DNA from: a virus
Virus record (IMG/VR): IMGVR_UViG_3300008108_000098
Direction: 5' to 3' (one strand)
Length of the DNA: 64,000 bases
The translations under genes and the position numbers were made by a program. Under the pieces are notes generated by a model. The model worked only from the letters and a program-made list of their open reading frames with translations, was not told the origin of the DNA and did not search any database. Shown here piece by piece: positions 39,857 to 64,000 of this stretch (within the stretch, counting starts at the first letter, position 1; each line of letters begins with the position of its first letter).

Positions 39857-39857
39857 A

Positions 39858-40283: not shown

Positions 40284-40334
40284 TTAATCAGTATATTTTG
40301 ATTTATAAAGAAAATTATTTATCTTTGTATATAT

Positions 40335-40596: not shown

Positions 40597-40670
40597 GGAT
40601 CGGTAGTTCAGTTGGTTAGAATGCTGCCCTGTCACGGCAGAGGTCGCGAGTTCGAGTCTCGTCCGGTCCG
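40597..40670 (+). tRNA. tRNA-Asp (GTC)
   Basis: Hand-folded. Anticodon loop CTGTCAC; T-loop TTCGAGT. Confidence 0.8.
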
Positions 40671-40774
40671 CTCGAAGAGTTTTATAGATTTTCAAACCCA
40701 TTATGGGTCTCAATCGAAAATCCAATCATTGTCTCACTGGTGATTGGGCTAAATGTGAAAGAAAAAATCTATAC

Positions 40775-40862
40775 GGAGAGATGGCAGAGTTGGTCTATCG
40801 CACTTGACTTGAAATCAAGAGAACGGGAAACTGTTCCGTGGGTTCGAATCCTACTCTCTCCG
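40775..40862 (+). tRNA. tRNA-Ser (TGA), long variable arm
   Basis: Hand-folded. Anticodon stem CTTGA/TCAAG, loop CTTGAAA, 88 nt. Confidence 0.8.
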
Positions 40863-41224
40863 CATTAGAAAAGTATTTATTACTATGATCATCGTAGTAA
40901 TAGTTAGTGGAATGTTAATTGGATATATTGTAGGTTGTTTTTTTCTCGATAGATGGATTAATAACGAATCAGAACACATAGATAACCAATAAATAAAACT
41001 TATGACACCAAGGCAGTACAATGAATTAATGAGACAAGCTGATGTTCTTGAAAAAGATAAAATAAACAAAGAATTTCATGATTTGTGGGAACAGTTTACA
41101 ATTGAAAACCCAAATACTATTGGTGGTTTTAAAGAACAATTTGAGTCATTTAAATGGTTGTGGTTTAAATTAAAAGAAAATAAGAAATATTAAATATTTA
41201 ATTAATATAGGTGACTAATCATAA

Positions 41225-45855: not shown

Positions 45856-45884
45856 TATATAATGGGCATGATGTGATCCAAGAA
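45856..45884 (-). pseudogene. remnant of the 3' end of an SGNH-family gene
   Basis: 27/29 nt identical to the last codons and stop of 47095..47712. Encodes ..VLGSHHAHYI* versus ..QILDHIMPNI*. Confidence 0.45.
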
Positions 45885-45930
45885 CTAATCACGGATTCTT
45901 TTATTTATACTTGTTGAATATTTATAAAAG

Positions 45931-47088: not shown

Positions 47089-47094
47089 CCAAGA

Positions 47095-47712
47095 TTATAT
47101 ATTGGGCATAATGTGATCCAAGATTTGACCTTGGACTCCTTTGGTATAATGGCAACACTGATGTTTATTATATCCATTATCAACCAACCACCGATTAAAT
47201 CCAACATCGAACTTGATGTGTTTACCGCATTTTAATAACTGATCCGACCATTCGGTGTTCTCGTTGTAGATATAAAATATCTTAACTCCCCTACTTTCCA
47301 ACTGTTCAAAGATTATATTGAATTGGTGGAATAGTCTTCTATTATAATCCTCACTATAATCTAAAAGGTGGGTGATGATATCAAACATATGTTTTTCATT
47401 AGTCAGGATCTTTCCATTCTCGTCCATACCATCCACATAGAATCTGTTGGTTGATTTGATTTCGTTATCGTTTTTATCGTAGAAACATCCTCTAACGAAA
47501 TAACTGAAGTTAAAGAATAGGATATCATTTGGTTTGAACTCGAATAGTTTTTGTAGGAGACGATGGAGGATCATTTCGTTGGATCCGCCGGGGAGTATAC
47601 TGTTATTACAATTATATTCATAACCAATTCTATGGGACAGAAGTTCAACGAAGTGAGGTTCCTTATTTTCTGTGTACCCATAACTGTCCCCGAAGTGATA
47701 TATTGTGTTCAT
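47095..47712 (-). CDS. SGNH/GDSL-like hydrolase paralog
   Basis: N-terminus MNTIYHFGDSYGY. Convergent with 45931..47088 with a 6-nt gap. Confidence 0.5.
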   Translation of the reverse strand: MNTIYHFGDSYGYTENKEPHFVELLSHRIGYEYNCNNSILPGGSNEMILHRLLQKLFEFKPNDILFFNFSYFVRGCFYDKNDNEIKSTNRFYVDGMDENGKILTNEKHMFDIITHLLDYSEDYNRRLFHQFNIIFEQLESRGVKIFYIYNENTEWSDQLLKCGKHIKFDVGFNRWLVDNGYNKHQCCHYTKGVQGQILDHIMPNI

Positions 47713-51294: not shown

Positions 51295-51414
51295 GAAAGT
51301 CCTCACCTGTAATGGGTGGGGATAATTGGGAGAGAATAGAGAGATAGGTACCAGAAGACAGGAAAGATTTTCACTTCTTTAAAGGTTCACACTTTCCCGA
51401 ATAGATCCCCTGAA

Positions 51415-51432
51415 GGGGTCCGTCAGGACCCC
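51415..51432. other. perfect GC hairpin GGGGTCC-GTCA-GGACCCC
   Basis: Seen directly. Overlaps the CCCCTGAAGGGG hairpin at 51407-51418. Confidence 0.7.
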
Positions 51433-51682
51433 GTAAATTACCCCCGATTTATTCCGTCTAACTACCCTGAAAACCCTATAAAATTCCCCCTGTTTTTAGG
51501 TACATTTTGTCGTAGTTATTTTATATACAGATATAACCATATAAACTTGTTAAATTCCGTGTAGGATATATACCAGCCACGATTTGGGGAAAAAGTGGGG
51601 AAAAGTGGTAATATGTGGGGGATTGACCCTTGCGTGAATTAAGACCCATATTATAAAAATTTATATGCATAACTGTTATTGC

Positions 51683-51699
51683 GGGGTCCTTCGGACCCC
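51683..51699. other. perfect GC hairpin GGGGTCC-TTC-GGACCCC
   Basis: Same stem sequence as 51415. Confidence 0.7.
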
Positions 51700-51847
51700 T
51701 TCAGGACTGACATAGTGTCCGTTTTCATTATATATACGTATATATTATATGTGTAATACGGTGAGTGTCATACGATTAGTTTCTACTTAACATAATCGTA
51801 GTTATAAGACACAATATAACCCCCTCACGTCATACGAACGGGATGAA

Positions 51848-51866
51848 GGGCCACCGAAGGTGGCCC
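51848..51866. other. perfect GC hairpin GGGCCACC-GAA-GGTGGCCC
   Basis: 8-bp stem, seen directly. Confidence 0.7.
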
Positions 51867-51911
51867 GTAATTCTGTTTAACTTTTTAAGATCGTTGTTTA
51901 AACAACTATTA

Positions 51912-52006
51912 ATATTGTCTGGCAAATGTCATACGAAGTTTTTGCCAAACAATATTGGCGAGGACCAGTCTGACCCCAGTGTTGTCATACGAATGTTGTT
52001 TGGCAA
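51912..52006. repeat. IR-family copies: ATATTGTCTGGCAA ... TTGCCAAACAATAT ... TTGTTTGGCAA, with GTCATACGAA x2
   Basis: Seen directly. Same half-sites as the copies in the 52-64 kb block. Confidence 0.65.
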
Positions 52007-52018
52007 AATGGTCGGGTA

Positions 52019-52987
52019 TTAACTAAAGTCGATTTCGTATTTAGCGAACTGTTTTTTTAGGTGATCTTTAATTTCTCTATAAAGGTCCCAATCATCAGTT
52101 GCTGTAAGTGGTTTCCCGTCATACGACTCAAATGACGCAGTAAGTGAAATACTATAATCGGGGATGATGGTATTTGTTCGAGGGTCTATCAATGTTGCGG
52201 GATTATAGTCGTATTTGCTGGTTGAATATAGATATATACCATTACCCATACCCATTCGTAATACGTATGGTTTCCCTTTGTACATACCCTTGGATAATGC
52301 TTTGAGAATTACTTTTCCTCTTTTAACGGATCTTAATCTTTCCTCATCAAAATTATCAGAGAACTTAGCAATTAAGTTTTCAGGGATAACAAGTGTATTA
52401 CGAATGGCCTGTCTTTGAAAACTATTTAAATCATTAAACGACTTAACCTCTTGTTTGGGTACGTCGAATATGTTTTCCTGTATTGTTTGTCCGTGACCGA
52501 AAAGAAACTTCATATCTAATTCCGTCATCAAAGTTTTTGCAACCTGACTTGGAATTACTTCTCTTAAATTAAAATTAAACGAACCATTGTCATACGTTCT
52601 AAACCCTTCGATTGGATAATCCACATCTGGCATTGACATTGACATTTTACCATTACCTATGGCTTCATTGGTGAACAGGTGTAATCCATGTTTTATACCT
52701 AAGTTATATATGTGTACAAAAATATCGAACATACATGTGGGACTTATTTGTGCACCTCCGTCTAATCTAAAATCAGGTAATATTCTTAAGTTACCCTCAT
52801 GGGAACTACTTGAGCTGATTGCACATTTTGCTTCAGCGTTTTCAATTCTGAAGTCTAACGATGAAAAGTCTTTTGAAATTTTAAATATAGCCTCTTCAAA
52901 ATCAACCTTACTATCATTGAATTCAAATTCCTTCTTTGGTTCTTGGTTCTCCCCGTCTTCCATTAGTATGTCATACATCTTGATCAT
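52019..52987 (-). CDS. hypothetical protein
   Basis: Start moved to the first ATG (MIKMYDIL). The track start is a TTG inside the repeat. Confidence 0.45.
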   Translation of the reverse strand: MIKMYDILMEDGENQEPKKEFEFNDSKVDFEEAIFKISKDFSSLDFRIENAEAKCAISSSSSHEGNLRILPDFRLDGGAQISPTCMFDIFVHIYNLGIKHGLHLFTNEAIGNGKMSMSMPDVDYPIEGFRTYDNGSFNFNLREVIPSQVAKTLMTELDMKFLFGHGQTIQENIFDVPKQEVKSFNDLNSFQRQAIRNTLVIPENLIAKFSDNFDEERLRSVKRGKVILKALSKGMYKGKPYVLRMGMGNGIYLYSTSKYDYNPATLIDPRTNTIIPDYSISLTASFESYDGKPLTATDDWDLYREIKDHLKKQFAKYEIDFS

Positions 52988-53056
52988 AATAATAAATACT
53001 TTTGCCAAACAATATCTACCGTCTTCTTGGATCCTGAATCAGGAGACACTGTTTAA

Positions 53057-53083
53057 TAAAAAAATCCCAAGTGCAGACTTGGG
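53057..53083 (-). terminator. intrinsic terminator (minus): CCCAAGT-GCAG-ACTTGGG plus U-run
   Basis: 7-bp stem. A-run on the plus strand gives a U-run for minus-strand transcripts. Confidence 0.65.
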
Positions 53084-53149
53084 GGTCTACACGTTGGGAT
53101 TTAACGACCGATATATAATTAAAGGGCTTTAAAACCCTCAAATCATATA

Positions 53150-53338
53150 TTAGGCTGTTGCAAGGAGCTGATTGCGATAAGCAATTGCATTTCTCTTAGA
53201 AGAGAAATTCTTGCTGTATTTAGTTCCAGCTACACTTACACGTACACGATAGGATGAACCATCGAAGTACACATTGCTTGAAACCGGTACATAAGTAGTT
53301 TTAGTACGACGGTTTCGGTTGGTTGTTGATTTTTTCAT
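53150..53338 (-). CDS. AP2/integrase-arm-type DNA-binding domain protein (62 aa)
   Basis: YFDGSSYRVRVSVAGTKYSKNFSSKRNAIAYRNQL fits the 3-strand-plus-helix AP2-like pattern. Confidence 0.5.
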   Translation of the reverse strand: MKKSTTNRNRRTKTTYVPVSSNVYFDGSSYRVRVSVAGTKYSKNFSSKRNAIAYRNQLLATA

Positions 53339-53639
53339 ATAACATTTGGTTTATATTAAAATATAACATCCAAAAGTCATAAAAAAAAATATCCGGCAAC
53401 TTTTTTTAAAAAAGTTTTTGCCAAGCAATATCGCCCGATCATCTCCTCCCTCAGGGTTTCTTCTTATATCGAGAACCCCACTTGATGGACATGTATGCAT
53501 CATACCTGTGTCTCTTCATCCCATTGAAGAGAAAGTACACAAAGTAGTAATCCCAAATCCATTCCAACTCTTTAAAGAACTTCTTCATAAGCATAATTTT
53601 GCCAAACAATATCCGACAGACTCATCCTGATCTGAACCG

Positions 53640-53840
53640 TCAGATATTATTATGATACTCGAGATCTTCTTTGTTTATTGATTCAAGATTGAACTCATCG
53701 TACAATTGTTTCAGGACCCTGAGTTCACCTTCAGATCGATACTCTTCTTCAGGGCTGTCGAAATATCCTAAATCAATTCTGTTTGTTAATGAGTCGATCT
53801 TAGTAACGATCCACAACATTAAAATGGGTTTATTTATCAT
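53640..53840 (-). CDS. hypothetical acidic protein
   Basis: 66-aa ORF. Confidence 0.35.
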   Translation of the reverse strand: MINKPILMLWIVTKIDSLTNRIDLGYFDSPEEEYRSEGELRVLKQLYDEFNLESINKEDLEYHNNI

Positions 53841-53886
53841 GATATAATAGTTTTACAATTTTATGGGACAAAAAAAAGGACTCTTG

Positions 53887-54474
53887 TTAGAGTCCGTGTA
53901 AAGCTGGATGAATCTTTCCTTTTACTCCCCTTGGTCGATACTTACCCTCCTCATCGATGTAGAAGTCAATAATCAATCCAACCACCTTACGGTTAACTCT
54001 TGCCACATACAGTGTATATGACCCATCTCCAATTCCTGAACGAGTCACCACACCATTTTCATATGAACCCCACTCAAGTTTTGCTAAAGTGATCTTACAC
54101 ATCTTCAGGTACCAATCGTCCCCGTCTTTGGTGACAGGAAGCTCGAACGGTCTTCCATCATATGTTTCTGTTGGTACATCCATATCAATACCGTCGACTC
54201 TGTAAGTTTCCTTACTGAAGATACCGGCCTGACCTGAATCAACACCAATCTCAGCAGAATACTTTCTCCACGTGAGATCCTGATCAAGATAATCCTCGTG
54301 GATAGCTGTTAGATACGCAATTCTGTTGCCCCAACCATCTGTTTCCATTTCAGTGGCATTAGCAACATAGGATCCAGGTAATACATTCTTTACAATGGCT
54401 TGGCACCAAGTTGGAATGGTGTAGCAGGGATCGGATACTACTACTTCTTTTCCGAGTGTGATTTTGTTTGTCAT
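53887..54474 (-). CDS. hypothetical protein
   Basis: 195 aa. Start embedded in the conserved TATTCGTATGACA context. Confidence 0.5.
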   Translation of the reverse strand: MTNKITLGKEVVVSDPCYTIPTWCQAIVKNVLPGSYVANATEMETDGWGNRIAYLTAIHEDYLDQDLTWRKYSAEIGVDSGQAGIFSKETYRVDGIDMDVPTETYDGRPFELPVTKDGDDWYLKMCKITLAKLEWGSYENGVVTRSGIGDGSYTLYVARVNRKVVGLIIDFYIDEEGKYRPRGVKGKIHPALHGL

Positions 54475-54479
54475 ACGAA

Positions 54480-54710
54480 TCAGGGTTTTAATGTTTCTAA
54501 TATTCTTTCGTAAATCTTTCTTGTTAAAGAACTGTCCACTGTTCCACCAGGTATTACACGGTCCCTACAGACGATATCACCTGATAAACAATCAACCTCT
54601 TTTACCAAAACAGAATCAAAAAGTATTGGAGATGGGAATCTAACAATACCCTTTGTTCCTTTTGATAATCCAACTTGGAGTGCTTCATTTCTAAGCTCTA
54701 AGAATTCCAT
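54480..54710 (-). CDS. hypothetical protein
   Basis: 76-aa ORF. Confidence 0.35.
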   Translation of the reverse strand: MEFLELRNEALQVGLSKGTKGIVRFPSPILFDSVLVKEVDCLSGDIVCRDRVIPGGTVDSSLTRKIYERILETLKP

Positions 54711-54746
54711 ATGATAAAGGTATTACATTAACTGGAATATTCCAAA

Positions 54747-55247
54747 TTAATTTGTGATATTTTTATAGATGCTTTCGTACTTCTTGATATTCTCCTGAAT
54801 TTCAACATCCATAGCTTTTACTAACTTGGAATATGCTTTATCCATAAAGTCCTGATTGCCAGACAATTTATCAAGATCACCGTCCCAAAACTCGAGGTTA
54901 TCTACAATGACACGTATATCCTTAGTTGTCTTATCAGTTCTAAAAAATGGACAACGAGCGTAGATATATTCATTACGTACTATGTTGAGCTTGATGTCAT
55001 CGTTCGTCAGATTTTCCTTGGACCTGATTTGCATGATGATCACTTCAAGATCAGCAAGTTGCTGAATCTCTGTCTTTGTCTTCGTGATTAGATCCTGATA
55101 TGATTTAACAAACTGACCCAACTTCTTGGATTCCTTATTTGCCAGTGAACTTCCATAATCCATGAACCTGTCGTAAGAACTTTTTTCTTTTTCATTACCT
55201 ACGACATTTACAAACACACCTTCGATGTTCTTGTTTACTCTACCCAT
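54747..55247 (-). CDS. hypothetical protein
   Basis: 166-aa ORF. Confidence 0.45.
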   Translation of the reverse strand: MGRVNKNIEGVFVNVVGNEKEKSSYDRFMDYGSSLANKESKKLGQFVKSYQDLITKTKTEIQQLADLEVIIMQIRSKENLTNDDIKLNIVRNEYIYARCPFFRTDKTTKDIRVIVDNLEFWDGDLDKLSGNQDFMDKAYSKLVKAMDVEIQENIKKYESIYKNITN

Positions 55248-55478
55248 AATTGCAGTTTTTGTTTTTTGTTTTAAAAATTATTTTGCCAAACAATATTGGA
55301 CATCTCCTCAGATCTGTTGTTCTTGAGATGTTCAATGTACTCGAGAAACGTCATTCCGAATCCATTCGGAACATCGTGCAACCTCCTACCGACATTGAAT
55401 TCGTTAATCCAATCTTGTTCCGATGGTTGATCCACGGGATACGTGCTTGTCATGATGTTAATACTCATTTGTTATGAT

Positions 55479-55709
55479 TTAACGGTTATAAATTTTTTTA
55501 TATTCCTTATCGGTCAAGAACCTGAAAGGTGAAGTAATCTTCTTACCAAGAAGCAAGAGTCCCATCACATGGTCAATTTTCTCGATGTCATCAATAAGAG
55601 CTCGATTACCCTGTGCAGGATGTTTGATGTTGTTGATTGTTGTGTACAATCTTTCTTCGATGGAATCAACTACATAAGTTGACTCGAAGGTTTCTTTTTT
55701 CTTTGCCAT
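55479..55709 (-). CDS. hypothetical protein
   Basis: 76-aa ORF. Confidence 0.4.
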   Translation of the reverse strand: MAKKKETFESTYVVDSIEERLYTTINNIKHPAQGNRALIDDIEKIDHVMGLLLLGKKITSPFRFLTDKEYKKIYNR

Positions 55710-55721
55710 GGTTTTTTGTTT

Positions 55722-56140
55722 TTAAAATTTAGTTACGAAAAGTTTATAATCAACTGTACCGATTTCAATGAAACTAAGGTTATCCGCATTTACACTATCA
55801 TTATAAATCCAATTGGGATTCTCTCTCGGATTATATTTCAACCTAACACACATGGAGTACGTGTCATACGGATCAAACCCATCAAACTTTACATCTATCG
55901 AATCACACAAGATCCATGCACAAACTGTCTTGTGTTCACCGTCAAAGATCTTCTGTGCGGTCTTCTTATTGTTCTTGAGTGTACATCCTTTCATCACGAG
56001 CTGCGTTGATGTAGGTGATACATATTCCACCTCACCAGATGGATACTGTATTTTCCATTTCATATAATTCTGACCTCGCCCAAGATTAAAACGAACTTTA
56101 ATTTTCTTGCTCATGTTTTTGATCTGTGTCATACGAATAA
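55722..56140 (-). CDS. hypothetical protein
   Basis: Start moved to MTQIKNMSKK at the conserved TATTCGTATGACA motif. Confidence 0.45.
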
Positions 56141-56207
56141 TATTAGGAGTTACAAAGATATAACAGGGATACGAATATACCAAATATATCCCTGTTATTT
56201 TTTTATA

Positions 56208-56987
56208 TTATTGGATTACAAATTTATTTGTATCCACGAGTTTATTTCGGACCCGTTTAAATTTCAAACCGACAATGACGTTTTTATCATCTCTGTACCT
56301 CATGTCATAAAGATCTCCATTGATTACAGGACGACCCCAAAAGGTTTCGGGTACATCTTTAAAAACTACCGCCACCCTGATGTCATTGTTCAACATACTA
56401 ATACAGTCCTGAAAATTAGAACCACTGTAGGAAAATGTGATATCATAATTCGGATACTTCTTTACCAACTCCAAACGTTTAGCAACCTTTGTGTAATCGT
56501 AAAATTGAACGTCAGAAAAGATCTCCAAAATATTTTGTTTGCGACCGTCAACATCTAAGTAAAATGATTCAGGTGAGATGTCACTCGTGTTATTCAGACG
56601 TACACTGAAATGAAGATCTTCATTGATCGATCTTTGCCAGGCATTATAGATCTCATCGATCATCCACTTCATAAAGAATTCTCGATGTTCAAAAAACAGT
56701 TTTGTCTTCTTGATTCGTGATGCATTAATCTTGTTCTCCTTAACGTCCATTTTATTACGCCCTGATTCATTCAAACACAATTGTGTACATTCAGGGGTCC
56801 TTTTCGGACAAACTTCGTATCCACTCATTTTAGCAGGTGCGAGATAAAGTGTGTAAACAAGTTCGTCATACTTATAAGCTTTCTCATGTTTGGTCGAATT
56901 GTTAACCATTCCGAGGTATGACAAACCTGTCAACTTCTTTGCTTGTGCAATTGATTTGTATTCCATATAATTTGATTTGTGATACAA
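56208..56987 (-). CDS. hypothetical protein with Cys cluster (CPKRTPECTQLC)
   Basis: 259 aa. TATCTTTG -7 box upstream. Confidence 0.5.
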   Translation of the reverse strand: MYHKSNYMEYKSIAQAKKLTGLSYLGMVNNSTKHEKAYKYDELVYTLYLAPAKMSGYEVCPKRTPECTQLCLNESGRNKMDVKENKINASRIKKTKLFFEHREFFMKWMIDEIYNAWQRSINEDLHFSVRLNNTSDISPESFYLDVDGRKQNILEIFSDVQFYDYTKVAKRLELVKKYPNYDITFSYSGSNFQDCISMLNNDIRVAVVFKDVPETFWGRPVINGDLYDMRYRDDKNVIVGLKFKRVRNKLVDTNKFVIQ

Positions 56988-57016
56988 AGATATAAATTTT
57001 ATTTAATTCTACAAAA

Positions 57017-57628
57017 TTAATCCTCAGCTTTAGCAACTTCCTGCATGTCCTCAATAAATTGTGCAACAGATTTAGGGAGTTGTTTCAGGTCATATGACTT
57101 GATCATTTTAACAGGTGAATACTCTCCCTCATTTTTCATGTGATAAAATCTATCTTCTTTAGTTAAAGGATTTGTATTAAAACCCTCATAGATCTCGAAA
57201 GTATTCTTATCAAGGTCGATAACATAAGCCCACTCACAGAACAAACTATCTGCAGCAAAATCCTCGCTATTGTTCAGCCAAATAAGTTTATCCGTGTCAT
57301 CCTCATAAACCATGTTCAAAATATTTGCACCATTGTCACGAGTAAGGAGTGGATATTTTTTATGATACTTTTGTGCTTGTTCACCATTCATCCAACCATC
57401 AGAAGCGTCGATTTTTGCCAGAAAATTTTCCATCTCCTTTTGCTTCCGTGGACTCTTTTCAATAAATCGGCAACGTTCCAAAGTTTGTTTAAACTTTTCC
57501 ATGTCGGAGTTCAACAAAAATTCTACAACTGTTACCCCTTGTCCTGATGGATACCCATCCCATTGTCCGTACTGTGCGATCTTGGTTTCTCCGTTTGAGA
57601 TTACCATCGTGAGGTTTCTTGTTCCCAT
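57017..57628 (-). CDS. hypothetical protein
   Basis: 203-aa ORF. Confidence 0.5.
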   Translation of the reverse strand: MGTRNLTMVISNGETKIAQYGQWDGYPSGQGVTVVEFLLNSDMEKFKQTLERCRFIEKSPRKQKEMENFLAKIDASDGWMNGEQAQKYHKKYPLLTRDNGANILNMVYEDDTDKLIWLNNSEDFAADSLFCEWAYVIDLDKNTFEIYEGFNTNPLTKEDRFYHMKNEGEYSPVKMIKSYDLKQLPKSVAQFIEDMQEVAKAED

Positions 57629-57640
57629 GTGTGTGTTTAT

Positions 57641-57961
57641 TTAAAGTAAAGCAATGATTTGTTTTCTTTTATCTACGTATTTTACAAGTCGTTTGATAAA
57701 TGCATCGGCACCCTGTTTGCTCTTGAAGTAAGCAAAGAATTGACAGTACTCACTATCCTCGTCCGCAGATTTAGTAAGAACTTTGTTTTCTTTAAGACGT
57801 TCAACAACATCGTAATTACTTTCGCAGTTGTCAAATGTTTCGAGTGCTCTAAGATCTGCAGTGACGGTCCAATGTTTGTCATCACTACCCTTGTACGGTT
57901 TCAAACTTTCAGCCTTAAATGATCTCCCTTCTGTTGAGAGAGAATAGAATACTTTGTCCAT
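57641..57961 (-). CDS. hypothetical protein
   Basis: 106 aa. First gene behind a class B promoter. Confidence 0.45.
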   Translation of the reverse strand: MDKVFYSLSTEGRSFKAESLKPYKGSDDKHWTVTADLRALETFDNCESNYDVVERLKENKVLTKSADEDSEYCQFFAYFKSKQGADAFIKRLVKYVDKRKQIIALL

Positions 57962-57981
57962 GGTTATAATGTTTTAGGATA

Positions 57982-58039
57982 CAAATATACTACGTATAAA
58001 TTGATAATCCAAATTTAATTTGTTAAAATTTTGTGAAGG
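57982..58039 (-). promoter_or_regulatory. class B promoter: CCTTCACAAAATTTTAACAA element, -33 TTG, TATATTTG -7 box
   Basis: Bacteroidetes-type TTG-N20-TAnnTTTG. Near-identical copies at 59548, 60297, 62615 and 63605. Confidence 0.6.
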
Positions 58040-58066
58040 TGAATTCACCTGTGCCGGGATTCGTTG

Positions 58067-58119
58067 ATATTGTCTGGCAAGTCGAGTAGATCCCGTCCAA
58101 CCTATTTGCCAAACAATAT
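58067..58119. repeat. inverted-repeat pair ATATTGTCTGGCAA-N25-TTGCCAAACAATAT
   Basis: Seen directly. 31-nt right arm plus flank identical to 60418-60448. Confidence 0.7.
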
Positions 58120-58163
58120 CCTTAGCTGTTGCTGCGCACAGTAGAAGATGAGGTAACAGCAAT

Positions 58164-58191
58164 AAAAAACCCCCTGAAACCAGGGGGTTTT
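58164..58191 (-). terminator. bidirectional intrinsic terminator: A6-CCCCCTG-AAAC-CAGGGGG-T4
   Basis: Perfect 7-bp stem flanked by A- and T-runs. Confidence 0.8.
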
Positions 58192-58226
58192 GACACTTAC
58201 TAAACCATTAGAAAAAAAACCAAATG

Positions 58227-58460
58227 TTACTTCTTTTTCACAGTAACGATTTCGAATAGGTTCTTATAGTTGTTATTTATAATTTCATCTTGGTACATCA
58301 TAGCATCATCTAATGAAAGTTTGGACTTTGATATTTCCCAATTCTTCTTTGTTTTAGATGTCCATACTTCCCAATACTTTTTCGCATCGTCTAATTTGAT
58401 ACGAACGAAAACTTGTTTGGAGTGATCAAACAATGCTTTTCTTTTTTCTGGTTCTACCAT
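58227..58460 (-). CDS. hypothetical protein
   Basis: Start set to the ATG (MVEPEK). The track start is a TTG. Confidence 0.4.
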   Translation of the reverse strand: MVEPEKRKALFDHSKQVFVRIKLDDAKKYWEVWTSKTKKNWEISKSKLSLDDAMMYQDEIINNNYKNLFEIVTVKKK

Positions 58461-58646
58461 ACGTTTGTTTTTTTGGTTATGCAAAAGTAGTGAAATATAT
58501 TAAATAAACAATAAAATATTTTAAATGTTTAATTTTAGGTAAAAAAAAACTAAACAAATCTTTTATCTAATTGATTACCATTGTCATACGAATTGCCAAA
58601 CAACTTGTGCGATCGGATTTCCCGCTGCGGGTTTTAGGTAATACAA

Positions 58647-58673
58647 ATAAAAAGGGACACCTTTCGGTGCCCC
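58647..58673 (-). terminator. intrinsic terminator (minus): GGGACACC-TTTC-GGTGCCCC
   Basis: Stem with one mismatch. A-run on the plus strand. Confidence 0.6.
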
Positions 58674-58704
58674 TCTGTTCTTACTAACACTATTCACAAC
58701 AAAC

Positions 58705-59490
58705 TTAAATCAAACGAAGATTCAACTTCTCATTTTCCCTACGGCGATAATTGTAAATGTCCTCAATCATCACAGAGTAAGCTCTCTTATCACCGCAAAG
58801 ATGAATTGAACCCGGACGAAGTTTAACCTTATGGATAAATTCATCAAACTTAAATCCCTTCTTCTTCTCGGCAATAGTGAGAATTGCTCTCACAAAGTTT
58901 GACTTATTGTACCCCTTTTCAAAGTAAGGTTTAATTTCAAGAAGGTGATTTGCCCACTTCTCAGCGGTTTTCACACTTGCGATATTAAACTTACCTTTTT
59001 GGAATTGCTCCGTACTTGGATGCTTTGTTCCGCTATTTTGCAGAAGCATCATTCTTTCGGTAAGTGAGAACATTGGGTACTTATCACCAAACTCTTGGAG
59101 AATTTGGAAGTTCTCATTTCCCATTTCGGAGTAACCATGAATATAATCGTTCTTACGAACTTTCTTCTTCCACATATTATATTTGAGGAAGGCGTCAAAG
59201 ATACCCTTTTTGGTGAGAGGAATTTCCTCATCAATTACATAATACACACCAACACCCGCGAGTCTTGCTGCGGACAATCTATGTTGTCCATCGGCAGTCC
59301 AATGAACACCATTCTTATCTTTTCTTGTTACAACAATAGGTTCAGTATAACGAAACCCATTGACCTTCATGTCATCAGCGATTTCACGAATTTGGTTTTG
59401 AGATTGAGAATCCGTGATTTCACGATTAACTTTTACGAGTTGAAATCTATCAAGATTCGTTTCGTAGAGAATACTTTTATTCTTACTCAT
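58705..59490 (-). CDS. ParB-like nuclease (ParB/Srx) domain protein
   Basis: Motifs YTEPIVVTR ... ADGQHRLSAARLAGV. Confidence 0.65.
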   Translation of the reverse strand: MSKNKSILYETNLDRFQLVKVNREITDSQSQNQIREIADDMKVNGFRYTEPIVVTRKDKNGVHWTADGQHRLSAARLAGVGVYYVIDEEIPLTKKGIFDAFLKYNMWKKKVRKNDYIHGYSEMGNENFQILQEFGDKYPMFSLTERMMLLQNSGTKHPSTEQFQKGKFNIASVKTAEKWANHLLEIKPYFEKGYNKSNFVRAILTIAEKKKGFKFDEFIHKVKLRPGSIHLCGDKRAYSVMIEDIYNYRRRENEKLNLRLI

Positions 59491-59547
59491 AGTAAGTGAT
59501 GTTCAGAACACCTGTCCCCGTGTTTGTTGTGAATTTGTTTACGAGTA

Positions 59548-59618
59548 CAAATATATAACATTAATAACTCCAATCCAAATTTATTTTTTTATATTCTGTT
59601 AAAATAATGTTAAGGTAA
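59548..59618 (-). promoter_or_regulatory. class B promoter (TATATTTG) with degenerate upstream element
   Basis: Plus-strand CAAATATA at 59548-59555. 5' UTR shares AAACACGGGGACAGGTNTTCTGAACA with the 63566 copy. Confidence 0.5.
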
Positions 59619-59672
59619 TACAAATGATATCTTGATGACACCAGTCTGATCGCCTGGGCTGCCTGGGCAATG

Positions 59673-59725
59673 TTGTTTGGCAAATTGATCTACTCGAGAT
59701 CTCCTCACTGTTAATTGCCAAACAA
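59673..59725. repeat. degenerate IR pair TTGTTTGGCAA-N31-TTGCCAAACAA
   Basis: Spacer contains GATCTACTCGAG, the reverse complement of the spacer in the 58067 copy. Confidence 0.55.
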
Positions 59726-59762
59726 ATTTCGTAATCCGATGACGATCGTCAACATCTTGGAA

Positions 59763-59792
59763 ATAAAAAAGGGAGATACGAAATGTATCTCC
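59763..59792 (-). terminator. intrinsic terminator (minus): GGGAGATAC-GAAAT-GTATCTCCC
   Basis: Perfect 9-bp stem with A-run. Confidence 0.75.
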
Positions 59793-59872
59793 CAAACAAA
59801 ACACCAAACACAGATTATGAACAACTAATAAAATATAGTTATATTATTTCAATAAATCAAGTGTACTATCAA

Positions 59873-60079
59873 TCAAATAGTTTTGAATGTACAATAATCT
59901 TCTAAACGATCTAATGAAATTCTACCATAGTTTGTTGAACTATAATAACCTTGAACGGAATACCTTTGTTTCCATTTGTTGAAGGACTCCATCATTTGTT
60001 TCTTTGATGGATATGTCCACTTGTCGAACTCAATAGTAAAACCATCGGGTGACAATACTTGATACTTTTTATTTTTCAT
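59873..60079 (-). CDS. hypothetical protein (68 aa)
   Basis: Start set at MKNKKYQ. 11-nt overlap with the upstream gene. Confidence 0.4.
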   Translation of the reverse strand: MKNKKYQVLSPDGFTIEFDKWTYPSKKQMMESFNKWKQRYSVQGYYSSTNYGRISLDRLEDYCTFKTI

Positions 60080-60278
60080 CTTCTTGTGTTTTAATAATTG
60101 TTTGTGAATATTCAACCTCAATTCGTGTATCCATATGTTGCATACCACTATATCGGTTTTGTCTATGAATTTCGACAACCGAATGTCCACCAAATGGTTT
60201 CCATCCTTCTTGAATAAATTCATTTACTTTTCTTGTCAGTTCTTCGGGAGAACGTGATGATACGATTTTGTATTCCAT
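60069..60278 (-). CDS. DUF1737-like small protein
   Basis: MEYKIVSSRSPEELTRKVNEFIQEGWKPFGG pattern. Confidence 0.45.
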   Translation of the reverse strand: MEYKIVSSRSPEELTRKVNEFIQEGWKPFGGHSVVEIHRQNRYSGMQHMDTRIEVEYSQTIIKTQEDEK

Positions 60279-60296
60279 TGTTATTAATTTAGATTA

Positions 60297-60354
60297 CAAA
60301 TATACAACGAATAAATTAATATTCCAAATAATAATTGTTAAAAATTTGTGAAGG
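60297..60354 (-). promoter_or_regulatory. class B promoter
   Basis: Contains TTGTTAAAAATTTGTGAAGG ... TTGGAATAT ... TATATTTGTA. Confidence 0.6.
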
Positions 60355-60389
60355 AAATCAATGGTTTCAGCCGATCTGATTCGGCGCCA

Positions 60390-60440
60390 ATATTGTTTGG
60401 CAAGTGAATATGGTCGTCCAACCTATTTGCCAAACAATAT
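60390..60440. repeat. IR pair ATATTGTTTGGCAA-N23-TTGCCAAACAATAT
   Basis: Seen directly. GC hairpin GCCGA-TCTGAT-TCGGC sits just upstream. Confidence 0.7.
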
Positions 60441-60473
60441 CCTTAGCTCACGGTACCCCAAATTGCACAAAAC

Positions 60474-60497
60474 AAAAAACCCCAGCAAGTGCTGGGG
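60474..60497 (-). terminator. intrinsic terminator (minus): CCCCAGC-AAGT-GCTGGGG
   Basis: Perfect 7-bp stem with A6 on the plus strand. Confidence 0.75.
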
Positions 60498-60524
60498 TAA
60501 ATCAAAAACACTATGAAAACAAAA

Positions 60525-61223
60525 CTAACTTTCCAACTCCAAAAGAGTTTTATATTCTTCTTCGGTAAGGTGTCGTGTATTTTCACTTCTTACTCCTTCC
60601 TTCTTCTTAATCAAAATACAATCACCTTGCCTAACAATCTTTTCAATACAACCCTTTGGAATATCAGTTTGAATTGTCCAAGCAATTGCGTCAATTGCCG
60701 TGATTTTACTTCCATAATCATCTTCACTACTATACCAACGATTTGTTGTTCTGTTATCGTTTGTTTCAAACACACTACGGGCGTCAATCCAAATCATATA
60801 CTCTCTATCGGTTGAGGTGTCTTTACACTTTACATAATAAACTGGTTGTGGTTTCCGCCAAGCGTTCTCAACTCCTTTACTCCAAACATCGCCATCTACT
60901 TTGTAAAGTTCATAAGTATCGTTGAACTCTTTTGTAATCAACTCACCACTTTGAGTTACCCAAGTAGTTTGTTTCTTCAAAGTTTCCTTATCAATCAATT
61001 TAGGTTTGACTTCTTTAACCAATCTTTCCAATCCAAGACAACCAACCGCCACTCGTCTCTGTTCTGTATTACGAAACAATGTGGCAATTTCTTTGAAGGT
61101 CATTGGAACAATATCGTTCCAAATATCTTCAATCTCTTTCATTGGACATTCGTTATATTTCAATTTCAAAAGGCGACAACCTTCGTTGTACGGAAATTCA
61201 ATGTTGTTGATAATAATTTTCAT
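60525..61223 (-). CDS. hypothetical protein
   Basis: 232-aa ORF. Confidence 0.5.
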   Translation of the reverse strand: MKIIINNIEFPYNEGCRLLKLKYNECPMKEIEDIWNDIVPMTFKEIATLFRNTEQRRVAVGCLGLERLVKEVKPKLIDKETLKKQTTWVTQSGELITKEFNDTYELYKVDGDVWSKGVENAWRKPQPVYYVKCKDTSTDREYMIWIDARSVFETNDNRTTNRWYSSEDDYGSKITAIDAIAWTIQTDIPKGCIEKIVRQGDCILIKKKEGVRSENTRHLTEEEYKTLLELES

Positions 61224-61244
61224 TTGTTTTGTTTTTAATTGTTT

Positions 61245-61925
61245 TTAATCTTCGCTTGGTCTGTAAATAGTAAAACTGCGACTGACTTGAATTGTAATAC
61301 CTTTCTTTGTGAACTCCATATCTGTTTCACTATTTTCCAAGTTAGTAGTCCAATTAAACCACTCACTCGCCTCGCCATTAGTATCTTCGTTTGTGAAAGT
61401 ATGAGTGTCGGCTTCATATTCAAACTTTTTCAAAAGTTTATCAATGATATTAGCTTCATCATTGTTAATCACACAATCAATTTTGTAATTAACATTCTTC
61501 TCGCCATCACCGCCATTCATACTACCAATCTTTGATTGTAATACTTCCTTTTCTTCTTTACTCAAAACAACTTCAAAAGTATCAGTAAAGGTTTCACTAA
61601 ACTCAGCCTGAGCGTCTTTGTGATAATCAAAGTCAGGTTCATCTTCATCATCATTAAATGTAATGATAACCTTACCAGCTTCACCCATATAGTAGCCATC
61701 ACTATTCACATAGAACTCCACACGCTTAAACACTTCGTCCTCAAAGAAATTTTTAAGTTCTTCTGTTTTCTTATTACTAATCTTCTTTGCTTTACTATCG
61801 TAAAAATTAAATTCATAGTCGTTCATACTATCGCCACCAGCGGAAAATTCCATTTCACACTCAGCGACTTTTGCTTCTTTCCAAAGCAACATTTCGGGGG
61901 TAAGTTTCAAGTTTTCAGTTTGCAT
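61245..61925 (-). CDS. highly acidic protein
   Basis: Asp/Glu/Phe-rich. Start trimmed to MQTENLK. Confidence 0.45.
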   Translation of the reverse strand: MQTENLKLTPEMLLWKEAKVAECEMEFSAGGDSMNDYEFNFYDSKAKKISNKKTEELKNFFEDEVFKRVEFYVNSDGYYMGEAGKVIITFNDDEDEPDFDYHKDAQAEFSETFTDTFEVVLSKEEKEVLQSKIGSMNGGDGEKNVNYKIDCVINNDEANIIDKLLKKFEYEADTHTFTNEDTNGEASEWFNWTTNLENSETDMEFTKKGITIQVSRSFTIYRPSED

Positions 61926-62313
61926 GAATTTTGTTATTAAGTTGTTGAACAATAAGTTTTCCTTCTTCGGTATCAAGTTCTTTTACTCCATTACACATCC
62001 AGGGTTGGACTTCCAAATGTTTCAAATAATCTTGTGGTGTTGGTACGAACTTCATACGAAAGTCCTCTGCGATATGTAACATCGCCACATCAACTACATC
62101 AACACTTTTGCCATCACTATTAGTGATATTGTAACCAAAAATTTTTGGTACAATAGTATAAGCGAACCAAGTGTTATGAGTAAGGAGCCGTGAACTATTA
62201 TTGTTCATTGTCGCTTTTGGACTATCAATCAATTCGTGGATAGCGAGGTAATCTTCTACTTTACCACCCCAACGCTTGACCGAAGATTTTGAATGAATGA
62301 GAGGATTTGCCAT
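61915..62313 (-). CDS. hypothetical protein
   Basis: 132-aa ORF. Confidence 0.45.
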   Translation of the reverse strand: MANPLIHSKSSVKRWGGKVEDYLAIHELIDSPKATMNNNSSRLLTHNTWFAYTIVPKIFGYNITNSDGKSVDVVDVAMLHIAEDFRMKFVPTPQDYLKHLEVQPWMCNGVKELDTEEGKLIVQQLNNKIHAN

Positions 62314-62331
62314 AGTGTTTTGTTTTGTTGG

Positions 62332-62595
62332 TTAATCCCAAACTCTTTCAATAGTTTGTGTAAATGGATTGTACTCAACTTGTTTTCCCATTGACCACTC
62401 ACCTTTTTCAATTTTCAATGTTTGGTGTTCATTACTGAATGAGCCGTCAGGTTGTTCGTGTTTCAACAAACTATCTTTTGTTACAACCAGATCAGTAAAT
62501 TCGGTTTCCGTTTCATCAATTTTGAAATCACCATACAAAGTGTGTTGATTTACTCCTTCACCTTTGAGGAGCGTGTGTTTCTTTTTTGCTTTCAT
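62332..62595 (-). CDS. hypothetical protein (87 aa)
   Basis: First gene behind a class B promoter. Confidence 0.4.
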   Translation of the reverse strand: MKAKKKHTLLKGEGVNQHTLYGDFKIDETETEFTDLVVTKDSLLKHEQPDGSFSNEHQTLKIEKGEWSMGKQVEYNPFTQTIERVWD

Positions 62596-62614
62596 TGTTT
62601 AATAATTTAGAATA

Positions 62615-62672
62615 CAAATATAAAGATAATAAATGAATAAAACAAATTTATTTTGTTAAAATTTTGTGAAGG
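62615..62672 (-). promoter_or_regulatory. class B promoter
   Basis: Contains TTGTTAAAATTTTGTGAAGG ... TATATTTGTATTC. Confidence 0.6.
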
Positions 62673-62698
62673 AAGAAGACAGGTGTGGCCCAGTTTTG

Positions 62699-62800
62699 AT
62701 ATTGTCTGGCAACCCCTTCCACATCTGTCCCTGTCATACGAATCTTTGCCAAACAATATCGGCGCATGCGCACGCTGCGATCGACAGCAACTTCAGAGCA
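62699..62800. repeat. IR pair with GTCATACGAA, then GC-rich palindrome GCGCATGCGC
   Basis: About 75 nt near-identical to 63663-63735. Confidence 0.7.
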
Positions 62801-62853
62801 TAAAAAAACCCCACCATTTCTGATGAGGTCTTTCTATTATGAACCACTAATGT

Positions 62854-63555
62854 TTATCTTTTAGTTAATATTGTTAAATCAGACACTTCAAAATATTCAT
62901 CATTCATATTTTTTGATTCGTAAACTTTTTTTGTGTCAAAATCTTTACCATCATAAAGGGTTGTTGGTAATAAAAATCGATAAACAATTTTACCCTCTGA
63001 CATTGTTTTCTTTATTTTCATTACATAATTAAATTTAGATGATTTTTTATTTAACACATCTTTTAATCTAACTCTTAATCCTCTATCAACAATATCTACA
63101 TTAGACTCGTCGATGTTTGTTATACTCTCACATCTAATTGTTTGTATTGTTAATTCACCTTCAATATTTTTTAATTTATTAAAATCGGATTCATCTATAA
63201 CATAACCAGTAATTTTTTTAAATTCAACAGGGTCTTGTCTAATAGCAGGATATTTGTAATAATTATCTAATTCATCAATTAATAAAACATAATAATTTTT
63301 ATTCTCAAAATTTAAATTTTTGATTTGAATCTTTGTAAAATTAACCGAACCATAAAACATATAATTAAGTTTTTTTGGGTATATCATATTTTCATTACCC
63401 ACCCATATTCCCATATCGGTATTATATTTCCATCCAGTTGATTTAAGAATCGGTTGATACTCACCACTCCAAGTTGGGATTGTTGTATTAACTCTGTCTT
63501 GTCCGTATGATACGAACGATACTAAAACCATTGTTAATACTAATAACTTTTTCAT
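62854..63555 (-). CDS. secreted protein (N-terminal signal peptide)
   Basis: N-terminus MKKLLVLTMVLVSFVSYGQD. Confidence 0.55.
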   Translation of the reverse strand: MKKLLVLTMVLVSFVSYGQDRVNTTIPTWSGEYQPILKSTGWKYNTDMGIWVGNENMIYPKKLNYMFYGSVNFTKIQIKNLNFENKNYYVLLIDELDNYYKYPAIRQDPVEFKKITGYVIDESDFNKLKNIEGELTIQTIRCESITNIDESNVDIVDRGLRVRLKDVLNKKSSKFNYVMKIKKTMSEGKIVYRFLLPTTLYDGKDFDTKKVYESKNMNDEYFEVSDLTILTKR

Positions 63556-63604
63556 AATAGATTGTGTTCAGTAAACCTGTCCCCGTGTTTGATTGGTTAG
63601 AATA

Positions 63605-63662
63605 CAAATATACAATGTATATAATCATATTCCAAATAATAATTGTTAAAAATTTGTGAAGG
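63605..63662 (-). promoter_or_regulatory. class B promoter with conserved 5' UTR element
   Basis: TATATTTG box. UTR has AAACACGGGGACAGGTTTACTGAACA (plus 63566-63591). Confidence 0.6.
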
Positions 63663-63735
63663 TGTCATACGAATCTTTGCCAAACAATATCGGCGCATGC
63701 GCGCGCTGCGATCGACAGCAACTTCAGAGCAAAAA
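63663..63735. repeat. duplicate of the 62733-62800 segment (GTCATACGAA, TTGCCAAACAATAT, GCGCATGCGC)
   Basis: Seen directly, with only a few mismatches. Confidence 0.7.
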
Positions 63736-63738
63736 AAA

Positions 63739-63760
63739 GCCCCTCGTAGAAACGAGAGGC
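63739..63760 (-). terminator. intrinsic terminator (minus): GCCCCTCG-TAGAAA-CGAGAGGC
   Basis: Stem with one mismatch. A8 on the plus strand. Confidence 0.6.
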
Positions 63761-63800
63761 GTGGTTAAAAAGATTAACCTAAACCAACATCTTATGTCTT

Positions 63801-64000
63801 ACACCAGTTGAGCCAAGTCATTAAAGATTTCAAGTTCTCTTTTACCATACACATTAAACATCTTCTCATCAGACCTATCATCTTTTGAAACCGAATGTGT
63901 AGTGTATTTTGTTACGCCACTAAACAATCCCCAAAGGTTCTCACCCTTTGTTCTCAATTCACCATTAAGGTCAATATAAAAGCGAGAGAGTTTGTTACGA
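63801..64000 (-). CDS. hypothetical protein, 3' part (gene continues beyond window)
   Basis: Open frame to the window edge; ends ...DLAQLV*. Confidence 0.4.

Follow-up and report, generated by a model that had tools for sequence, protein, structure and literature searches.

A repeated half-site in recombinogenic, PeSL-like terminator-promoter cassettes of a jumbo-phage clade: predicted binding sites of a phage regulator

We investigated a repeated 14-nt word, here called the half-site, and the intergenic cassettes that carry it in a 64,000-nt stretch of viral DNA (IMG/VR record IMGVR_UViG_3300008108_000098); this whole stretch is referred to as the window. From 52019 to 64000 all genes of the window lie on the minus strand. 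The plus-strand genes stop by 51294, leaving a convergent junction of 720 bp of non-coding DNA (51300–52019). The minus-strand module is at least 12.7 kb long and is built of small genes, each of which is its own transcription unit. It encodes a ParB-like protein of the DGQHR type, DUF932, DUF1737, DUF6915, GP88 and L5 gp82-like proteins and many small proteins without assignment. Gene content together with the one-promoter-one-terminator layout suggests a module of early or accessory genes. Megablast of 24 kb of the window against INPHARED gave no DNA match to known phages. An identical copy of a 62-aa module protein (53150–53338) is encoded on a metagenomic contig of 178.6 kb and by several near-identical strains. 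Since viral contigs with relatives of the ParB-like or the 62-aa gene reach 335 kb, and since relatives of module genes also occur on two contigs of metagenome-assembled genomes, one binned to Bacteroidota (L011) and one to Chitinophagaceae (L037), the source is an uncultivated jumbo phage of Bacteroidota. The phage appears to be lytic.

A previous annotation made from the letters alone, referred to as the sequence-only reading, had described a family of inverted, operator-like sites in this module. We searched the window for ATATTGTYTGGCAA with up to two mismatches. The family is real: 23 matches were found versus 2.74 expected, the top count among 100 shuffles being 7. All coordinates listed before were matched, while an exact copy at 46463–46476 and two copies in coding DNA of the module (54856 and 60627, two mismatches each to the ATATTGTTTGGCAA form) had been missed. 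Nineteen of the 23 matches fall within 51.9–63.7 kb, and 16 of these 19 are located in non-coding DNA, which makes up 23.5% of that stretch; a random distribution that includes the genes does not fit this pattern. The exact copy at 55283 likewise lies in coding DNA. Spacers of the inverted pairs, given before as 17–39 bp, measure 16, 25, 31, 23 and 33 nt. The half-site contains ATT GTT TGG CAA, which encodes IVWQ, and the peptide (N/D)IVWQ of several spurious reading frames does stem from the repeat. The individual sites are as follows:

46463–46476, minus strand: half-site, the sole exact copy outside the module, inside a 385-aa open reading frame (ORF, 45931–47088).
51912–51955, minus strand: inverted pair ATATTGTTTGGCAA-N16-TTGCCAGACAATAT with TTCGTATGAC in the spacer, at the end-of-module junction.
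51993–52006, plus strand: single half-site ATGTTGTTTGGCAA abutting GTCATACGAA, 13 nt beyond the stop codon of the last module gene.
53002–53015, minus strand: single half-site, 51 nt past the terminator 53066–53083; the ATG of gene 52019–52987 follows 14 nt on.
53418–53431, minus strand: half-site ATATTGCTTGGCAA, about 80 nt upstream of the gene for the AP2-like 62-aa protein, with GGCAA within a terminator-like hairpin.
53599–53612, minus strand: single half-site; the ATG of a small conserved ORF (53451–53590) follows about 8–9 nt on.
55283–55296, minus strand: single exact half-site, overlapping the last codons of ORF 55271–55468 and about 35 nt before the ATG of a clade-universal 166-aa gene (54747–55247).
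58067–58119, minus strand: inverted pair, spacer 25 nt; its cassette extends between the terminator 58166–58191 and a promoter with its -7 box at 57982–57989.
58593–58606, minus strand: half-site AAGTTGTTTGGCAA (two mismatches) fused to TTCGTATGAC (58583–58592), 45 nt past the terminator 58651–58676.
59670–59728, minus strand: inverted pair AATTTGTTTGGCAA-N31-TTGCCAAACAACAT (one to two mismatches per arm), upstream of the ParB-like gene and 43 nt past the terminator 59771–59793.
60390–60440, minus strand: inverted pair with perfectly matching arms and a spacer of 23 nt, 39 nt past the terminator 60479–60498.
62699–62759, minus strand: inverted pair whose 33-nt spacer contains TTCGTATGAC; GCGCATGCGC, CGATCG and a terminator (about 62804–62831, identified by eye, including G.U pairs) precede the pair.
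63677–63690, minus strand: single half-site, then aga and TTCGTATGAC (63664–63673), 49 nt past the terminator 63739–63760.

Each long intergenic region of the module follows a common plan on the minus strand. The stop codon is followed by an intrinsic terminator, about 45 nt of GC-rich, palindrome-rich spacer and a first half-site ATATTGTTTGGCAA; onward from there we often found TTCGTATGAC and the inverted partner TTGCCAGACAATAT, then a block CCTTCACAAAWTTTTAACAA, the promoter, a short leader and the ATG. Such cassettes are 150–450 bp long. Seven terminators of the module were obtained from a scan and one by eye. TTTG and TAnnTTTG form the established consensus of primary-sigma promoters in Bacteroidetes (Bacteroides, Flavobacterium), and eight promoters of this type (TTTG, about 20 nt, TAnnTTTG) were located on the minus strand within 56153–63612, each 19–58 nt before an ATG. 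A scan for sigma-70-type promoters stayed at background (61 found versus 51 expected). The promoter elements are:

63605–63612, 62615–62622, 60297–60304 and 59548–59555, minus strand: -7 boxes of the first four promoters.
58482–58489, 57982–57989, 56985–56992 and 56153–56160, minus strand: -7 boxes of the last four promoters.
58020–58039, 60335–60354, 62653–62672 and 63643–63662, minus strand: UP-like block CCTTCACAAAWTTTTAACAA, the 58020 copy immediately upstream of the -33 TTTG.

Relatives L011 and L066 carry CTTTAACAAAAYTTTAACAAA as the UP-like equivalent of CCTTCACAAAWTTTTAACAA. The GC-rich palindromes said to accompany the sites are indeed found: GCGCATGCGC occurs twice and GGTGAATTCACC once in the module, and CGATCG four times versus once in the other 51 kb. 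All four CGATCG copies (58610, 59743, 62778, 63709) lie in the GC-rich spacer between terminator and first half-site.

We determined the position of the sites relative to terminators and promoters. According to the sequence-only reading they always lie between the two. This holds for the cassette-type sites at 58.1, 58.6, 59.7, 60.4, 62.7 and 63.7 kb but not for four single sites that are off the cassette plan and lie about 8–80 nt before start codons: 53002, 53599 and 55283 have no host-type promoter between site and start codon, although 53002 follows a terminator too, and 53418 overlaps a terminator-like hairpin. In every subclade the slot corresponding to 53418 is occupied by the lineage's own word. 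Across the clade the distance from the terminator stem to the first site has a median of 45 nt with an interquartile range (IQR) of 39–52 nt (135 unique cases), and in 117 of these 135 cases the first site is in coding orientation. From the last site to the -7 box the median is 61 nt (IQR 41–88); in the window cassettes the last site ends 45–96 nt before the -33 TTTG, as judged by eye. The sites are thus non-random, intergenic, biased in orientation and held at a fixed distance from the terminator, and the cassette grammar holds throughout the clade.

Near-identical strains have gained or lost gene cassettes, and the break-points lie in the repeated cassettes. A gene for a 233-aa protein is enclosed by a long direct repeat:

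62732–62812, no strand assigned: 81-nt direct repeat, 96% identical to 63663–63743, bounding the 233-aa gene cassette 62813–63662.

Within the repeat lie TGTCATACGAA, a half-site, GCGCATGCGC, CGATCG and the first part of the terminator. Strains L092, L093, L095 and L096, at least 99.7% identical over the aligned module segments, are without 62813–63662, that is the 233-aa gene and its promoter, and in these deletion strains the flanking alignments overlap by exactly the repeat 62732–62812 / 63663–63743. The 850-bp cassette is present in the window and in L094. Strain L092 has 92 extra nt (L092 2790–2881) at window position 60457/60458, with one more half-site and (GGGTACTTC)x4. Nine-nt repeats like GGGTACTTC (GAAGTACCC, GATGTTCCC) fill intergenic regions of L011 and L066. 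Outside the module, the 385-aa ORF 45931–47088 (within 45884–47095) has an HEFAH motif and lies between the copies of a 47-nt direct repeat (45856–45902 / 47096–47142); strains L092 and L095 lack this ORF.

This organization resembles the PeSL cassettes of T4-type phages, in which a short composite of terminator and early promoter is repeated between small variable genes and the repeats bound indels between close relatives (Arbiol et al. 2010, PMC2839356; Comeau et al. 2014, PMC4122927). Here too a composite of terminator and promoter separates small genes, and the 850-bp cassette of the 233-aa gene is lost exactly at the 81-nt repeat. Phage lineage and host differ, the promoter is of the Bacteroidetes -33/-7 type and not sigma-70, the cassette is much longer at 150–450 bp, and the half-site keeps its fixed 45-nt offset from the terminator. 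The extra words, namely the half-site, a second word YGTATKACA that is treated below, the UP-like block and the GC palindromes, are not part of the PeSL descriptions. Could the repeats then do without any binding function, as selfish or recombinational sequences that are kept alike by gene conversion among PeSL-like cassettes and serve cassette shuffling? The exact end of the cassette indel at the 81-nt repeat would fit, as would other strain indels that adjoin sites, and copies within one genome share the lineage's own word, as concerted evolution would give. However, conservation is limited to 13–14 nt amid unconserved flanks and spacers, within the genome as well as between genomes of 73% identity, whereas gene conversion would homogenise longer tracts, and the fixed orientation and 45-nt terminator distance in 135 unique cases indicate selection on position. 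We regard repeats devoid of a binding function as very unlikely.

The same word was found in relatives, where L011 alone has 29 sites in 8 kb. Loci encoding a ParB-like protein 37–70% identical to that of the window contain 8–50 matches to the core TTGTTTGGCA (up to one mismatch) per 11.5–21 kb, and loci with an identity of at most 29% contain 0–4. A weight matrix built from 510 unique sites reads R-A-W-n-TTGTTTGGCA-A and is short and asymmetric, flanked by GC-rich sequence on the 5' side and by AT-rich sequence on the 3' side; the consensus site RAWnTTGTTTGGCAA is not a palindrome. Neighbouring sites in relatives form 33 tight palindromes (gap 1–2), wide convergent pairs (gap 30–42), tandems (gap 36–45, period about 52 bp) and a few divergent pairs, and the majority of sites are single or tandem. 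Tight palindromes are absent from the window, whose pairs have 16–33-nt spacers. Centre-to-centre distances of 30–47 bp show no helical phasing. The palindrome for one dimeric protein that had been proposed gives way to an asymmetric monomer site used in varied arrangements.

Comparison with L141, a syntenic relative of about 73% nucleotide identity to the window, separates what is kept from what is replaced. Of the pairs that precede the ParB-like gene and the 106-aa gene, both arms are retained in L141, while the spacers differ from those of the window in sequence and in length (31 versus 28 nt and 25 versus 30 nt) and unrelated hairpins stand in place of the window's terminators. Of the earlier expectation that arm and spacer are both conserved in related phages, only the part concerning the arms is borne out. 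We also considered a hairpin role of the inverted pairs, which might fold as stem-loops in read-through RNA or extrude as DNA cruciforms and signal, for example, processing, stability or termination. The 14-nt arms of the five window pairs would permit a stem, and four of these pairs have arms that differ at one position only, as a U.G wobble in the sense strand. But among 110 unique convergent pairs the arm mismatches are mostly T.T, A.A and A.C, G.U accounting for 14.5% of non-Watson-Crick positions, and the recurrent tight palindrome of L011 and L066 sets TTGTTTGGCA opposite TGCCAATCAA, which gives a T.T mismatch. Most sites, moreover, have no convergent partner, being single or tandem; they lie behind intrinsic terminators; and the sequence itself is conserved, without compensatory change. 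On these mismatch statistics we reject a hairpin or REP-like (repetitive extragenic palindromic) RNA repeat with complementary arms, and we consider a hairpin function of any kind extremely unlikely. Arms are conserved while spacers turn over, and pairing between arms is not selected. Since arms are kept while spacers and terminators are replaced, and the arms are not kept complementary, the pattern carries the signature of a sequence-specific protein site and not of a hairpin. Together with the enrichment and the non-coding location, this arm conservation agrees with the description of the sites as operator-like, intergenic and sequence-specific.

Several other assignments were tried. Searching Rfam, we obtained matches only to four tRNAs, and the junction gave none even at E-values up to 1. 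The inverted repeat was also sought in 185,579 genomes; of the 39 loci obtained, most were unrelated hairpins, and L011 and L037 were the only true relatives. The idea of operators of a host regulon under a chromosomal regulator of Bacteroidota was dropped, as the loci of the genome scan are chance hairpins and the Flavobacterium matches lie inside coding sequences. In six Flavobacterium genomes, including L010 (4415–4461), TTGTTTGGCAA-N25-TTGCCAGACAA is found within coding sequence (...MLVWQKQKNNWILIARQ...), the arms encoding LVWQ and IARQ; this inverted repeat is a coding coincidence and not a regulatory site. Miniature inverted-repeat transposable elements were rejected by eye, given the lack of target-site duplications and spacers of just 16–33 nt. 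A literature search for the motif strings returned primers only.

The words that fill the cassettes differ by subclade: besides TTGTYTGGCA we found TTAGTTTGGCA, TTTACTGGGG, CTTTACTGGA, ATGACTGGC, ACTGGAAA and TTGTTTCGCA. These alternative words fill equivalent slots, for instance upstream of the gene for the 62-aa protein. At the junction the three-site layout of the window is kept in L141, and the canonical pair is kept in most other subclades even when their cassettes use another word.

The sequence-only reading had also noted a motif attached to the half-sites, GTCATACGAA. We found 13 matches to it in the window (up to one mismatch) versus 3.5 expected; 12 of these lie in 51.7–63.7 kb in one shared orientation, and 8 are exact. 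Five matches are located 0–5 nt from a half-site, and in relatives GTATKAC starts 1–9 nt downstream of 37 of 256 forward-oriented half-sites, which confirms the attachment. GTCATACGAA is the local form of YGTATKACA (454 unique sites, no further flanking consensus). In each of the nine subclades YGTATKACA ranks with the most widespread 8-mers, and its distance to gene starts is not fixed. Half-site and second word are alike, as seen from TGTTTGGCA versus TGTATGACA. The features of the second word and of the junction are:

51560–51806, no strand assigned: conserved non-coding block at the junction, 70–83% nucleotide identity across subclades.
51753–51993, minus strand: five same-orientation GTATKAC words (51753, 51767, 51829, 51928, 51984) at the junction; relatives pile up likewise.
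54470–54479, minus strand: TTCGTATGAC whose ATG is the start codon of gene 53887–54474.
56128–56137: TTCGTATGAC supplying the start codon of gene 55722–56132.

The distribution of GTATKAC is strictly confined to the module. Positions 1–51300 of the window contain no copy on either strand (about 11 expected), and 51301–64000 contains 26. In 133 kb of module DNA from 19 relatives (L097–L138) we counted 288 copies, 230 on the coding strand (80%) and 58 on the other. The 69 kb past the junction in the same relatives, with both strands counted, contain none (about 17 expected). Outside modules overall there are 0 copies versus about 28 expected. This exclusion is not an effect of composition; possible causes are a promoter word of a dedicated polymerase, iterons, or a target that is harmful elsewhere. 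The half-site, unlike GTATKAC, is not depleted outside the module.

Between 5 and 9 copies of GTATKAC in the same orientation cluster at the junction. In L048 seven copies start at 13799, 13818, 13837, 13856, 13884, 13911 and 13943, the first four with a 19-nt period, and an eighth at 14062, so that this array at the module end resembles iterons. The conserved junction block has counterparts at L066 19313–19550, L106 7523–7752 and L107 6617–6869, in subclades whose proteins are merely 35–60% identical, and it contains the core TGGGTCTTAATTCACGCAAGGGTCAATCCCCCAC and CCACTTTTCCCC repeats. The block 51560–51806 gave no Rfam match and no consensus RNA fold. These features bear on the idea that the sites derive from an element at the module end, such as a replication origin, a packaging signal or a DNA-entry signal resembling an injection stop, and that the cassette copies are secondary. 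The canonical junction pair of subclades with other cassette words, the conserved block and the iteron-like words would all agree with it, as would the otherwise unrelated phages L001–L007, each of which has only one canonical inverted repeat, located at a convergent junction. On the other hand, dozens of dispersed copies linked to terminators and promoters are unexpected for an origin or pac site, and no replication or terminase gene is adjacent. Cumulative GC skew turns at the junction, but only because the gene strand changes there. An origin of the sites in such a module-end signal is in our estimate improbable.

Both words are biased toward the coding strand, and one or both could mark transcription starts for a machinery specific to the phage, be it a dedicated sigma factor or an RNA polymerase of its own. 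The confinement of YGTATKACA to the module and its absence from the rest of the genome on both strands is what one would expect of a promoter word, and jumbo phages with virion RNA polymerases have AT-rich early motifs of about 10 nt (PMC7598289, PMC5312081). YGTATKACA resembles the early-promoter words of phiKZ and AR9 (PMC7598289, PMC5312081) in being short, conserved, AT-rich, strand-specific and confined to an early region. It differs in that neither it nor the half-site stands at a fixed distance from gene starts. Many copies are inverted, tandem or within genes. Furthermore, every gene already has a canonical host-type promoter at normal distance, and no gene for an RNA polymerase or sigma factor was seen among the parts of the window that were scanned. 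As an element of known promoters the half-site was rejected by eye, since it fits neither TAnnTTTG nor the -24/-12 elements of sigma-54. Initiation at either word thus appears highly improbable.

We next consider the proteins that could read these words. Two candidates are encoded in the module:

53150–53338, minus strand: basic 62-aa protein with a modelled AP2/integrase-arm-type fold, candidate reader of YGTATKACA.
58705–59490, minus strand: ParB-like protein of the DGQHR type, alternative candidate binder.

About 255 proteins, each of about 60 aa, make up the family of the 62-aa protein; 38 aligned homologues are 68–93% identical to it, with 24 invariant columns. Its conservation greatly exceeds that of the neighbouring proteins: compared with L066 its identity is 80%, that of the ParB-like protein 36%. 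No Pfam or PDB sequence match was found for it. The structural model (mean predicted local distance difference test, pLDDT, 85.5) has a basic tail, four strands (residues 17–45) and a C-terminal helix (48–61). It comes closest to the arm-binding domains of integrases (3jtz, 3rmp), to AP2 domains and to lambda Int; the best matches, which include 3jtz, 3rmp, 3igm, 7et4 and 5j0n, are not significant (E 0.5–2.5, TM about 0.5). The suggested AP2-like character thus agrees with the model, but the protein tracks YGTATKACA and not the inverted repeat for which it had been named as a reader. Its co-occurrence with YGTATKACA is perfect and with the half-site imperfect, L102 and L138 having the protein and YGTATKACA and lacking the canonical half-site. 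Because it is present with YGTATKACA in every lineage, including these two, the 62-aa protein would be a more fitting reader of that word than of the inverted repeat. As a reader of the inverted repeat it is weakened by near-identical proteins in subclades with quite different cassette words and partly rescued by the canonical junction pair, which survives in most subclades. The gene for the 62-aa protein has a separate leader, (T)TGTTATATTTTATATATAAAC (53339–53400), unlike the TAnnTTTG promoters of the other cassettes; this leader is conserved in most subclades (L097–L138 at about 5880–6000).

Arm-type sites of tyrosine integrases (lambda Int, HPI/P4-like Int; 3jtz, 3rmp, 5j0n) offer a parallel. 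They are asymmetric, about 9–10 bp long and present in several copies, orientations and spacings, and they are bound by a small domain of a three-stranded sheet plus helix, which the model of the 62-aa protein resembles best. In contrast to these systems the 62-aa protein is free-standing without a recombinase, the fold E-values of 0.5–0.9 are not significant, and the sites number dozens and are tied to transcription signals.

The ParB-like protein matches PHROG 12305 (1.4e-14) and is a DGQHR-type ParB/Srx relative. KorB of plasmid RK2 acts on many OB copies at variable distances from the promoters of a co-regulated set; OB and parS are compact palindromes. By analogy the sites could be centromere or silencing sites of the parS or OB kind, on which the ParB-like protein loads and spreads, regulating the cassette promoters globally. 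The many copies, the site-promoter distance that varies as is typical of KorB operators, and a ParB-family gene within the set, with its own inverted pair upstream, are in line with such a system. The word is present in all loci with a ParB-like protein of 37–70% identity, and true palindromes, TTGTTTGGCA-NN-TGCCAAWCAA, are found in relatives. Yet shared ancestry confounds this co-occurrence, and similarity of the protein does not follow the word: L047 (70% identity) uses TTAGTTTGGCA, L066 (36%) the word of the window. In the window the unit is a half-site or a wide pair, not a compact palindrome. The protein itself gave no Pfam hit, ParBc included, at E-values up to 0.01 and no PDB relative, and by eye we saw neither the canonical GxxRxxA CTP-binding motif nor a recognisable helix-turn-helix. 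Loading of the ParB-like protein on these sites is in our view unlikely.

The third protein named by the sequence-only reading has a genuine DnaA domain IV (35190–35561; Pfam match 9e-18), but it is encoded outside the module, and no close relative of it was retrieved from viral contigs. The clade-universal 166-aa protein gave a model with pLDDT 86.6 and no informative or DNA-binding fold match. Pfam, PHROG and PDB-sequence searches of the module proteins revealed no helix-turn-helix or other DNA-binding domain.

With moderate confidence, we predict that the half-sites are binding sites of a phage regulator, set in PeSL-like recombinogenic terminator-promoter cassettes. The unit would be one asymmetric 13–14-nt site, RAWnTTGTTTGGCAA, for a sequence-specific DNA-binding protein of this jumbo-phage clade, and the inverted pairs would be one of several deployments of a monomer site. 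A protein encoded by the phage would occupy the sites and would co-ordinately control the transcription units that host RNA polymerase reads in the module, most likely by shutting off or insulating transcription directly after each terminator and ahead of each promoter. The spacer between terminator and first site would be free to vary in sequence. A second protein, most plausibly the 62-aa AP2-fold protein, would read YGTATKACA.

The operators of phage P1 C1 provide a precedent for a word of this kind: an asymmetric sequence in the mid-teens of nt is found at many places of the genome, as monovalent or bivalent operators, is read by a monomer and overlaps the promoters that are repressed. The half-site shares the asymmetric, dispersed word and its occurrence singly or in inverted pairs of differing geometry. 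It differs in that most copies lie 45–150 nt upstream of the promoter and behind a terminator, and in that the phage appears lytic.

A number of observations weigh against a regulator of this type. The sites are positioned by the terminator and not by the promoter, the opposite of what a classical operator model predicts, and most are found 45–150 nt ahead of the -33 box, a position from which a simple repressor is not expected to block RNA polymerase. In an operator array each site overlaps or abuts its promoter, which was not seen here; adjacency, and only to the start codon, is confined to 53002, 53599 and 55283. Subclades C–G have other words in their cassette slots, so that cassette function is independent of this particular word. 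Outside the module the 14-nt word shows no depletion, so stray binding would evidently be harmless. The unrelated phages L001–L007 carry the canonical inverted repeat without a recognisable shared regulator in the available flanks, in which no module protein is shared with the window. Finally, the searches among the phage proteins yielded no more than candidate readers of the half-site, and the label "early" derives solely from host-type promoters, per-gene terminators and gene content.

A more speculative variant takes the module as a labelled compartment. In this case the AP2-fold protein would read YGTATKACA, which is forbidden elsewhere clade-wide, and the half-sites would serve a second, lineage-variable factor, the two words acting as a DNA "address" that confines an activity to the first-expressed region. 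Dedicated transcription, arrest of DNA entry, silencing and cleavage are conceivable as the confined activity. To our knowledge no two-word address system has been described, and we hold this variant to be doubtful.

The cassettes offer a first regulatory grammar, consisting of terminator, fixed spacer, one or more words and host-type promoter, for a widespread uncultivated clade of freshwater Bacteroidota jumbo phages, and they extend PeSL-like cassette shuffling beyond the T4 group. Concrete protein-DNA pairs follow from the predictions, namely the 62-aa AP2-fold protein versus YGTATKACA and versus the half-site. What sets the system apart is the fixed terminator offset and the link to a 7-mer that is excluded genome-wide; full exclusion of a 7-mer from the rest of a genome is a strong and unusual signal and could expose a separation of early and late genome functions.

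The rest of the window encodes four tRNAs (Trp, Met, Asp, Ser), a thymidylate synthase, a glycosyltransferase/epimerase block, two PcfJ-like proteins and a DNA methyltransferase (39524–40863, 15431–16525, 4322–12187). A very basic 44-aa ORF on the minus strand (17236–17370; MAKGKSS...YRGQGR) is 54% identical to L007 721–843 and is the sole protein common to the window and the otherwise unrelated L001–L007 phages.

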